From an uncultured delta proteobacterium (lineage in GTDB: Bacteria > Desulfobacterota > Syntrophorhabdia > Syntrophorhabdales > WCHB1-27), in the NCBI GenBank assembly GCA_963810935.1, contig CAWEPK010000009.1, positions 64,001 to 128,000 on the forward strand: a stretch of 64,000 bases of DNA, read 5' to 3'. This document shows positions 28,901-31,900 of this stretch, one piece after another. Each line of letters starts with the position of its first letter. The stretch's first letter is position 1. Position numbers: made by a program.

Positions 28901-31900
28901 CCGGTACGCCGGGCTATGGCCCGGTAAGCTGTATATCTCGTCCTTCTCCAACGTAAAACCCGCGTGATCGGTAGGTTTTTCGTCCTTGCCCCGGACGAGG
29001 AAGGCCCTGCCGCCCCCGGCAAGGTGCCTCCCCCCTTTATCGAGCACCTCGGCTGCAGGGCCGAACGCCTTGGCGACGAGGAGATCGGTGGAGAGTGGGC
29101 TTATATCTTCTGCCCTGCCGTGGACGACCTGAAGGCCTTTGAGGCCGAGAAGGCGTTTAATATGGCGCTGGAAGAGGACCTTCTTGAATGTTTTATCGAC
29201 TGAATAAATGTCTCTCCCGGGGTCCAGTACGGCCAGGGGGATGGCGACTACGCCGGAGCCCGAGCCCAGGTCGAGGAGGGAGCCGGCCCCCGGCAGGCGG
29301 GACCGGATAAAAAAAGCGTCGTAGAGGAGGCCCTCTACGATCCGGCCGCCCCCTTTAAGACCGACCAGGTTCATCGTCCGGCCCCACCGCTCCAGCTCGT
29401 CGATATAGTACGCGAGGAGCGACACGGTCTCTTCGCTGCCTTCGATGCCGAAGGCGGCAAGGCCTTTTGCGATCAAATCACGCGGTCTTTGGGCGGCCTG
29501 TCCGGTCAAGATACCTCCCGTAATGATTAACCTTAAGGAGGGGTGGACCTTGCCCCCTCGCGATATTAAAGTTAGCATAAATCTATTGTTTCTGTTATAG
29601 TAAACCCGATGCGTATCAGGCTTGCGATTTTGGTAATCCTTTGCTTCGCCCTCGTCGCGTGCGGCAGCAGGAAGCAGGAAATAAAGAAGGTGGACAGCCC
29701 GGGGGCGCTCTACGTCCAGGGCATTGCCCACATGAAGAAAAAAGAGTGGGACAAGGCCATACAGGCATTCGGCAAGGTCCGGGAAAATTATCCCTTCGAT
29801 CCGATAGCTCTCGTAGCGCAGATAAAGCAGGCGGACTCCAATTTCGAAAAAAAGGCATACCCCTCGGCAGCCATAGCGTATGAGGATTTCGTCAACAGCT
29901 ACCCGGAAGACGAGAACGCAGCGTACGCCCTCAGACGCCTTGCGGAGTGCTACGAAAAGACGTCTCCGATTGCAGAGCGGGACCAGTCAAATACGTTCAA
30001 GGCAATCGAGCGATTCACCTTCCTGAAGAACCGTTATCCCGCCAGCCCTTACGCCAAAGACGCGGACGCGCACGTCAATAAGCTTACGGAGAAGCTGGCC
30101 GCAAGGGAAGTCTTCGTAGGCGAGTTCTACCACAGGTGGAAGAGATACAACGCCTCCATCATCCGCTTCGAATACTTTCTGCAAAAGTATCCGGACGCCA
30201 AAGACAGGGACAAAGCGCTCTATTACATCGCCCTCGATTACCAGGAGCTTCAGGATTCCGACAAGTCCCAGGCTTACCTCGACAGGCTGAAAAAGGAATA
30301 TCCGAAGAGCCGCTATCTCGGCGGGTCCATAAAGCGGGAGCGAAGGAGCCTCCAGGTAGCGAGCGTGAAGCCCGCTGCTGCTGTTGCAGCACCTGCTGTT
30401 GTGGGCGCGCAGCCGGCAGGCGCAGCTCCGGGGGCGCAGACTGCCATTGCCCAGCCTGCAGCGCCCATTGTGGCGTCTTACGAGGAGAAGAAGCCGAGGC
30501 AGATCGATTTGGAGCCTGTCGATCCACCAAAGAGTGGTGAAGCACAGCCCGCGCTAAAAGAAGGCGCGCAGGGCGCCCCCGACAAGGCCGCTAAAGACGC
30601 CGCCGCAACGGTTAAGAAAACGGACGACGGGAAAAGACTAGAGGCGAAGAAAACGGACGACGGGAAAACCTCTCTGGGCTTCTTCTCCGAGAAGAAACCC
30701 GTCGACGTCGTGGCGGATTCGATGGAGGGGCTCGAAAAGGGCAAGATCATACTTTTCAAGGGCAATGTAATCGCCAAACAGGTTGACCTTTATCTATTCT
30801 CGGACATGCTTACCGCCTATGTGAATGAAGAGACAAACGAGATCGACAGGGCCAAGGCCGAAGGCAACGTTAAGATAGTCAAGCTCGACAGGACAGCGAC
30901 CTGCAAAGAGGCGTTCTTTTATAACGACAAGGGAGAGATCATCCTGAAAGGGGACGTAATAGTCTTCTCGGGCAAAGACAAGGTCTCCGGCGACGTCGTA
31001 ACGTATTATATCAACGAGGACCGCGTTCACGTCATGGGCCAAAAGGACAAACGGGCCAAGGCGCTGATCAGCCCCAAATGAGAAACAGGGCGCTTGTCGC
31101 GCCCTGCCTCGATCGTTTATCTTATTTTTCTGTCTGTCTGTTGTCCGGTGTCTAACCGGCTGCCTATCCGAGCACCTTCTTGATGAGATTATCGACTGTA
31201 CCCTTCGGGACGGCCCCGGTAACCCGTTCGACCGCCTCGCCTTTATTGAACAATATCAGCGTAGGTATCCCCCGGACGCCGAACTTCGACGTCGTTACGG
31301 GGTTCGAGTCAACGTTGAGTTTCATGACCTTCACGCGGCCGTCGTATTCGTCCGCCACGGTATCGAGAATCGGCCCCATCATCTGGCACGGTCCGCACCA
31401 GGTCGCCCAGAAATCGACCAGGACCGGAACGTTCGAATCTTCAACTTCATTTTTGAAATCGCCGTCGCTCAAGGGCGCTGCCTTGCTCATACGTCCTCCT
31501 TATCGACTTTTTGAATAAGGGAATGGCGCCGCCATTCCTTCTTTCATTTTCAGGTGAAGCGGCCGCGGGGCTCGCAGCATGTCGGCGCATCCACTTTCTT
31601 CGCAGCAGGCTTGACGTCCTTGCTCCCGCAGTGGACGCATTCGGGTGCCTTATCGTCCGCATTCATCTCAAAAGATTTGCCGCATTTTTTACAATCGTAC
31701 TTCTTGCCTTCCATAGGCTGGTTATCCTCCTTTGCGTGCACGTGAATCGTGTTTTGTCTAAATAGTATAATGTGCCGGAACGCCAATTACAACCCGGTGC
31801 AAGGCCGGGTGCTTGCGCCGCTGAAACGCAGACGACCACAGGAGTGATCTAAAGAACGGGGGAGACGCCCAAAAAGGCGCCCGTGCATCCTATCTATAGA

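Follow-up and report, generated by a model that had tools for sequence, protein, structure and literature searches.

The Lpt bridge for lipopolysaccharide (LPS) runs head to tail, from LptC through LptA to LptD. As set out in passages of three accounts (PMC5575297, PMC3944529, PMC6286764), the N-terminal end of LptA contacts LptC and its C-terminal end contacts LptD, and two of these (PMC3944529, PMC5575297) treat the number of LptA units per bridge as unsettled. [quoted passage not shown] In E. coli, BamA of the protein-assembly machine BAM and LptD occupy separate clusters with a differing cell-cycle dependence, and a relationship between the two is stated as a hypothesis in the portion of PMC11912417 consulted. 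How the insertion of proteins and of LPS into the outer membrane is coordinated is an open question, and a covalent link between BAM and Lpt matters because the coupling in E. coli is still hypothetical (PMC11912417).

The window analysed here, the whole stretch of 64,000 nucleotides of an uncultured member of the Syntrophorhabdia, contains a gene in which a BAM subunit is covalently joined to an Lpt-type domain (Table 1). Its 490 codons begin with ATG and, read from the sequence, carry the lipobox LVA-C18, the cysteine of which is invariant in alignment A1 and invariant or nearly so in alignment A3; LolA is encoded in the genome. From the N- to the C-terminus the order is BamD, a disordered linker of ~120 residues and a full LptA-type jellyroll, and no second signal peptide was found inside the frame. 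The AlphaFold2 model (79 homologues) has two ordered domains separated by disordered residues 244–360, and its pTM of 0.53 fits two independent domains within one fusion protein; a Foldseek search with the model ranks BamD structures first and LptA/LptH next. The preliminary description of this locus, which placed BamD and an LptA-like domain on one gene, is borne out by TIGR03302 and PF03968, both over their cut-offs in the single frame, as is its count of 72/76 database homologues with YfiO and OstA Pfams. The jellyroll, which it began at residue 345, starts near 362 in the model. Among the short database homologues, 12/17 of which were read, 11 are linker/domain fragments without a signal peptide and one is an ordinary free LptA (38%).

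Table 1. Features of the BamD–LptA locus and of the LptC–LptA gene of the same genome.
Feature	Coordinates	Strand	Basis or remark
rsmG-like methyltransferase ORF, divergent, then parA/parB-like genes	28874..29731	-	named by inspection; true start probably <29609
bamD-lptA fusion gene	29609..31081	+	490 aa lipoprotein, one frame
Lipoprotein signal peptide and lipobox (LVA-C18, Gly after Cys)	29609..29662	+	by eye, no predictor
BamD TPR domain (residues 18–240)	29660..30328	+	TIGR03302, model, Foldseek
Disordered Ala/Pro/Lys-rich linker	30329..30688	+	pLDDT mostly <50, residues 244–360
RERRSLQ linker motif	30335-30355	+	recurs across class
RQIDLEP linker motif	30497-30517	+	recurs across class
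LGFF linker motif	30674-30685	+	recurs across class
Full LptA-type beta-jellyroll (residues 361–490), KKPVDVVAD to RAKALISP	30689..31078	+	PF03968, TIGR03002, 2r19 alignment, Foldseek
Thioredoxin-like gene (WCGPC), convergent	31164..31490	-	downstream of the fusion gene
LptC-LptA gene, 305 aa	C8:565712-566629		PF06835 17–178, PF03968 188–287, N-terminal membrane helix

The N-terminal part resembles described BamD (TIGR03302, PF13525; PDB 3qky, 5d0o chain D, 9pxg chain D) in being a lipoprotein of five-TPR helical fold and the sole strong copy beside a full BamA. TIGR03302 matches residues 4–236 with 198 bits against a cut-off of 81, ten helices are modelled within residues 31–230 at a pLDDT mostly >95, and Foldseek aligns the part with 3qky (E 1.6e-14) and with 5d0o_D (rmsd 1.7 Å). 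The one strong BamD (YfiO) match in the whole genome is the fusion gene; the same genome has a full BamA (620 bits) and a weak BamE match, and also encodes LptE, LptF/G and LpxC. The conserved arginine of the AANRG motif in 9pxg corresponds in the alignment to R186, a residue that does not vary in A1 or A3 and is the counterpart of E. coli R197; this would be an indirect pointer to binding of BamA POTRA5. The fusion protein is the cell's BamD. It differs from known BamD in a C-terminal extension of 250 aa with the jellyroll at its end, whereas BamD is plain, with no such extension, in the named Desulfuromusa, Geobacteraceae, Desulfobacterales and Thermodesulfatator records.

The tethered domain shares with LptA/LptH (PF03968, TIGR03002; PDB 2r19, 2r1a, 4uu4) a full jellyroll with both edge strands. 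PF03968 matches residues 367–471 (58.8 bits, cut-off 20.4), while the LptA profile TIGR03002 matches residues 361–490 with 64 bits, just below its cut-off of 71.7, which the tethered domain exceeds in 11/11 orthologues from family f4 and genus g14. The domain is all-beta from residue 366 in the AlphaFold2 model, its alignment with E. coli LptA (2r19) spans 127/136 residues from the first to the last strand, and Foldseek returns 2r1a (E 2e-8) along with 2r19 and 4uu4. The edge strands KKPVDVVAD and RAKALISP align with QPIHIESD and RVTTVLVP of 2r19 and are kept across the class. I36, F95, Y114 and L116 of E. coli LptA, which we take to be the LPS-contacting residues of the groove, correspond here to V365, I423, F437 and an asparagine, so that 3/4 positions are hydrophobic. 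Unlike LptA, the tethered domain is not a free soluble protein and not part of an lptCAB operon: it hangs by its N-terminus from an outer-membrane lipoprotein, is a paralogue separate from the operon LptA, and is encoded on another contig instead of as a free protein with its own signal peptide between lptC and lptB. The C-terminal domain is thus LptA-like in fold and edges, not in gene setting. Averaged over the 16 class genomes that supplied both genes, the tethered jellyroll is 61% identical, against 57% for BamD, 47% for LptC and 45% for the LptC-fused jellyroll. An origin of the domain as a split-off N-domain of LptD was rejected, the LptD of the class having a jellyroll of its own.

The linker is far more variable than the domains that it joins, with a mean identity of 27% (16 class genomes) and a length of 46–221 aa (35 loci); 15/35 fall at 46–56 aa and none is shorter than 46, a minimum that would be expected if the linker must span a distance. 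Indels in it between related strains, seen in contigs from four runs of which none covers the gene from end to end, are multiples of three. We rejected LGFF as a mark specific to the fusion, similar motifs being found upstream of free LptAs.

PF03968 gives just two genes in this genome, and a free lptA was not found in it. The second of the two lies on contig C8, in the order kdsA-kdsD, LptC–LptA gene, lptB, rpoN, and its single 305-aa frame between kdsD and lptB agrees with the earlier statement that an LptC–LptA fusion stands in place of a free lptA. LptC and LptA meet in a short two-residue turn (VSGxIxT-xKG-KYxFxSD), and the periplasmic part is modelled as one continuous jellyroll (pTM 0.83). 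This fusion is of an already known kind, the same as the multi-OstA fusions noted in PMC3944529, and both parts of BamD–LptA are well-known domains. The difference is that multi-OstA fusions link Lpt parts together, while 29609..31081 links an Lpt part to a BAM part; the LptC–LptA of the class in turn differs from the known fusions in a shortened or eroded LptD-facing end. We found no description of a BamD–LptA fusion in the literature searched at the level of titles and abstracts, although subscription papers or supplements could mention one, and neither “LptA” nor “fused” occurs as a term in a BAM review of 2026 (PMC13067283). New here is the shortened LptD-facing end of the class LptC-fused LptA, which has decayed in 11 genomes of two clades, where the BamD-tethered domain is the only complete LptA found.

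The BamD fusion had been described as class-wide, and BamD and jellyroll do lie in one frame in 85/96 class genomes: searched with a BamD–LptA profile, these give one stop-free frame in 85, a frame broken by frameshift or stop in 7, a frame cut by a contig end in 1 and no match in 3. All 7 broken copies belong to family f1, where 4 break within BamD itself; the other 3 break in the linker, and for 2 of these the downstream piece, read throughout, lacks a signal peptide. On both counts they resemble assembly (indel) errors like those in the atpA-, atpD- and uppS-like genes of the present assembly. The class name follows the source labels of close homologues (Syntrophorhabdales, Syntrophorhabdaceae) and the named Syntrophorhabdus records that carry the fusion. 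A clean split between BamD and jellyroll was not found in the class.

As a trait of the class, however, the fusion does not stand. Among 401 phylum genomes sampled, 58 match the profile end to end, 15/15 from the class and 43/386 from outside it, so a restriction to the class was rejected. The outside carriers belong to eight families: f14 (10/11), f27 (6/7), f16 (7/7), f13 (4/5), f62 (8/9), f18 (4/9), f50 (3/7) and f28 (1/1). Named records are fused in 36/80 cases, under the labels Syntrophorhabdus or uncultured deltaproteobacteria (Syntrophaceae, Desulfarculaceae, Thermodesulfobacteriota, Syntrophus, unspecific). Of the 150 top matches in a search of 1.84 billion representatives, 28 extend over both domains, and both Pfams are among the five best in 17 of the 42 long representatives scanned. 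Three Atlas clusters (55–108 members), with Thermodesulfobacteriota as the commonest phylum, match at 0.98–0.99, and essentially all members shown have both Pfams. The carriers are mostly uncultured anaerobes.

Outside the class the fusion does not displace lptA. All nine fusion-bearing genomes checked there have a separate lptA before lptB, the tethered domain and the free LptA of the same genome are 20–43% identical (8 genomes), and in a tree of 73 jellyrolls, open at its deep forks, the tethered domains cluster by family and never with the LptA of their own genome. Since the free lptA is retained, the tethered domain is an extra paralogue, and a relocated operon lptA was rejected, since every operon read has its lptA slot occupied and the tree has no own-genome pairing. 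Monophyly of the tethered jellyrolls is not rejected (AU p 0.36, 129 columns). In a quick BamD tree, fused and unfused proteins are scattered, with 8 changes, at least 4 of them forced by strongly supported branches, and three unfused BamDs of f50 nest among fused ones, implying that the jellyroll was lost. The jellyroll may have been joined to BamD once, long ago, and lost repeatedly, or it may have been gained several times. The f16 and f50 copies of the tethered domain have diverged and lack the last strand (36–59% identity, against 58–75% for BamD), and a free LptA is present in 4/4 fused genomes checked. Conservation of the domain is close to that of BamD in f14, f27, f13/f62 and f18 (69–80%), the free LptA beside the fusion having been checked in f13, f14, f18 and f27, f62 aside.

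The LptC–LptA fusion is class-wide, as first described, but not uniformly full length: over the 96 class genomes it is complete in 76, C-terminally eroded in 11, broken or split in 6 and without a match in 3. Tails were read in 23/76 of the complete ones, and since five eroded ones match the whole profile by coordinates, the count is 76 and not 81. In all 14 class LptC-fused domains listed, the end is a shortened hairpin with the consensus FSVxxPKMRIE (aligned ends, by inspection), and a last strand of the form R/K-x-x-x-hydrophobic-x-P with a long loop is seen in operon LptAs, in the tethered domains of the class and in the LptC–LptA of family f15. This family is a natural control. In 5/5 of its genomes LptC–LptA is a separate fusion that contains a spacer, BamD is short and unfused, and a third gene with a jellyroll is missing; f15 also has LptD, and the fused LptA retains the usual end RAH(L/V)TIYP.

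The eroded end is found in family f4 (2/2) and genus g14 (9/9). After AVY(H/Y)F, the 36 residues that make four strands in the LptC–LptA model are replaced by a Ser/Thr/Pro/Lys-rich low-complexity tail, or are absent, and the hydrophobic share of this tail is 0–19% in the 11 eroded copies against 25–42% in 23 others. A tail profile scores ≤9.2 bits in eroded and about 20–80 in intact copies; it is partly circular, being built mostly from the intact rows scored, but four held-out intact rows gave 44.6, 44.2, 59.6 and 19.8 bits, and the count of hydrophobic residues does not rely on the profile. Three of the nine g14 tails still show a recognisable last strand. The f4 and g14 clades are each well supported, and the data do not reject one shared erosion event (AU p 0.435). 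Throughout the 11 genomes the BamD-tethered domain is whole and the sole match over the TIGR03002 cut-off, the other jellyroll matches being the eroded LptC–LptA and LptD only; LptD (frames of 652–719 aa) and LptF/G are of ordinary length, no compensating extension was seen and lptB is intact. The genomes are 78–100% complete, so that a missed lptA is possible in one but unlikely in all 11. Additional LptC–LptA truncations among the database matches were rejected, these being N-terminal fragments or due to a frameshift.

The preliminary description also had lptD absent from this assembly and present in relatives, and 77/81 class genomes do have it. In this assembly lptD was not found, nor were close matches to the genes beside which it lies in six relatives of the same family, folC among them. 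The absence is an assembly gap; a real loss of lptD from the organism was rejected because folC and the other neighbours are absent too. In the full-length LptD frames of the class that were read, the N-domain cysteine and the C-terminal cysteine are both retained, so the disulfide checkpoint on LptD probably persists, and loss of the LptD disulfide was rejected as a cause of the fusion.

On the reading that we favour, and which we regard as an even call, the tethered domain may be the part of the LPS bridge that docks on LptD (its LptD-proximal unit) and so keep Lpt on a leash to BAM. The lipid anchor would hold BamD, bound to BamA, at the inner face of the outer membrane, with the LptA domain on a flexible leash; LPS would then pass from LptFG to the inner-membrane LptC–LptA rod, on to the tethered LptA and so to LptDE, the first strand of the tethered domain lying on the rod and its last strand on the N-domain of LptD. 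We infer that the domain would bind LptD and the rod, carry LPS and engage BamA simultaneously. Where a lineage also has a free LptA, the tethered domain would be placed between that LptA and LptD. Each working bridge would be within linker reach of BAM, and LPS and outer-membrane proteins would be inserted side by side. The docking role is suggested by the LptD-facing end, which the tethered domain keeps while the class LptC-fused domain has it shortened or eroded; by the 11 genomes in which the tethered domain is the only complete LptA found; by its identity, 61% against 57% for BamD; by the free LptA of f16 and f50 (4 fused genomes checked), the families in which the tethered domain has decayed or disappeared; and by the lack of linkers under 46 aa, as though a distance had to be spanned. 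The joining itself is a plain observation, one frame in 85/96 class genomes, and so the statement of the preliminary description that BAM carries a piece of the LPS bridge is correct as far as the covalent connection goes; that the piece is a working one is suggested by the erosion pattern.

Several points weigh against docking. In f14, f27, f13/f62 and f18, where there is a free LptA (checked in all but f62), the tethered domain matches BamD in conservation, so that no role as sole LptA is needed and a role on the BAM side fits just as well. According to passages of PMC5575297, E. coli still grows to some degree on an LptA that lacks the last strand, and a C-terminally cut LptC can be viable; an eroded rod might therefore reach LptD unaided. 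The last strand is kept in 3/9 g14 tails, and the erosion is possibly one event. In family f15 there are only LptC–LptA and LptD, and a tethered copy is missing. Finally, one of the four groove positions is an asparagine, and the protein of 29609..31081 itself falls just below the LptA cut-off.

Carried further, the docking reading leads to a bridge that, in the class, would have no soluble subunit, BAM lending its tethered LptA, such that LPS could enter the outer membrane only beside BAM, in an obligate BAM–Lpt supercomplex. We put this forward tentatively, as possible but short of probable. Its stages might be laid out across the Desulfobacterota: an extra LptA would have been placed on BamD, the operon LptA would then have been fused to LptC, and its LptD-facing end would have decayed. 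Should the bridge prove unable to form without the tethered domain, BAM and Lpt would be one machine in this class. BamD–LptA suggests a physical joining of the two machines that build the outer membrane, and, as a natural construct kept in many lineages, it offers a design for testing both the number of LptA units and the coordination of BAM with Lpt.

The main rival, rather unlikely in our estimate but compatible with docking, is that the jellyroll aids the assembly of LptD, gripping or capping the N-domain of new LptD on BAM and then handing LptD to the bridge, with no steady-state carriage of LPS. The strong conservation of the tethered domain beside a free LptA and its retained LptD-facing last strand would fit such a role, as would statements in the literature that LptD binds BamD ahead of BamA and folds slowly (in a part of PMC11494362) and that LptD maturation gates the LptA–LptD contact (in a part of PMC3944529). 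It leaves unexplained, however, why the operon-derived LptA has a shortened or lost LptD-facing end in the class alone, and the kept cysteine pair, with a disulfide checkpoint probably present, speaks against it as well. The LptD-assembly helpers of E. coli, BepA, LptM and SurA/Skp, likewise act where BAM meets LptD; they are separate proteins of unrelated fold, and we know of none that is an LptA-type domain covalently carried on a BAM subunit.

Less probable still, and in our view quite unlikely, is that the domain works in the bridge while BamD does no more than get it exported, anchor it by a lipid and match its expression, with an incidental link to BamA. On this view the fusion could be gained, lost or split with no consequence for BAM. 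The patchy spread (8 changes, at least 4 forced), the unfused f50 BamDs inside fused ones and the low identity and wide length range of the linker (27%, 46–221 aa) all suit it, as does one genome (G072) with an extra free jellyroll copy that has its own signal-like N-terminus and is 83% identical to the tethered domain of that genome. The class nonetheless yielded no clean split, its broken copies resemble assembly errors, and short linker motifs persist.

We consider it improbable that the jellyroll has been repurposed to aid BAM and not Lpt, by presenting lipid or LPS where insertion takes place or by capturing, with its free edges, beta-strands from outer-membrane proteins that are still unfolded. 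Any protein of this fold offers exposed edge strands and a groove, the tethered and free LptAs of one genome are only 20–43% identical, and the f27 fusion protein also bears one or two Cds6-type NTF2-like domains, as though BamD were a scaffold for several modules; against this, both edge motifs match LptA, and the 11 genomes lack any other complete LptA that we could find although lptB, lptFG and lptD are intact. An artefact, whether a sequence error that merged neighbouring genes or a read-through without function, has next to no probability in spite of the frameshifts nearby in the assembly, being refuted by conservation: one frame in 85/96 class genomes and 43 others, no second signal peptide, linker indels in threes and three Atlas clusters with both Pfams.

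The surroundings of the locus are simple. The convergent thioredoxin-like gene downstream shows that the fusion gene ends at 31081. Nearby, the atpA-, atpD- and uppS-like genes are each split over two frames, that is, by frameshifts in the assembly. On the upstream side, the same rsmG/parA/parB-like neighbours also border the unfused bamD of families f105 and f112.

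Domains beyond the LptA-type jellyroll are found on BamD in family f27, which lies outside the class and has both the BamD-LptA fusion and a free lptA. The modules of these proteins, and of four database proteins of the same layout, run in the order BamD, linker, LptA, linker and, last, a single Cds6 C-terminal NTF2-like domain (PF24125) or a pair of them, over a total of 830-1010 aa. Such a protein is a three-module envelope scaffold, possibly also in contact with the cell wall. For other BamDs with a long C-terminal extension (13 proteins and two loci), an LptA match is absent among the domain families listed, and P0150 carries HEAT repeats; C-terminal add-ons on BamD seem to be tolerated often.

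The operon LptA is itself lengthened in three families by one or two additional N-terminal alpha/beta domains and a linker (frames of 416-595 aa); these we presume to resemble TolB-N/CsgG-like domains. Family f15 has an LptC-LptA fusion with a spacer, separate from that of the class, and its short BamD-like protein (frames of 199-224 aa) lacks the initial TPR portion of the BamD family model.

Within genome G072, a second, free jellyroll has a signal-like N-terminus and 83% identity to the BamD-tethered domain of the same genome; the LptC-LptA of G072 is frameshifted in the assembly. The LptC-LptA locus is present twice in the single assemblies of G075 (L035 and L037) and G475 (C16 and C17), which may reflect duplication or bin contamination. 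The LptC-fused tail of L261 (G051, genus g11) is partly diverged, scoring 19.8 bits on the tail profile with 25% hydrophobic residues, possibly a further, early erosion.

In the window, the atpD-, atpA- and uppS-like genes are each spread over two frames that overlap, a sign of indel errors in the source assembly. The LpxC match of that genome is part of an open frame of 500 codons, which exceeds the length of LpxC by itself and may be a fusion or upstream read-through.

Positions and identifiers of the features discussed
Feature	Position or identifier	Source
BamD-linker-LptA-linker-Cds6-type genes	L054:2477-5263; L055:1578-4223	family f27
Proteins of the same layout	P0080, P0083, P0084, P0086	
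BamD with long C-terminal extension	P0121, P0131, P0150, P0158, P0166, P0175, P0177, P0182, P0183, P0186, P0201, P0212, P0213; L066, L073	
Lengthened operon lptA	L163:2432-3679; L164:2420-3688; L165:1094-2878	families f57, f38, f23
LptC-LptA fusion and short BamD-like protein	L227, L228, L235, L236, L239; L230-L234	family f15
Second, free tethered-type jellyroll	L034:3444-3974	genome G072
atpD-like gene	21899-23312	window
atpA-like gene	24188-25697	window
uppS-like gene	36687-37405	window
LpxC match	C3:138844-139656	source genome G000
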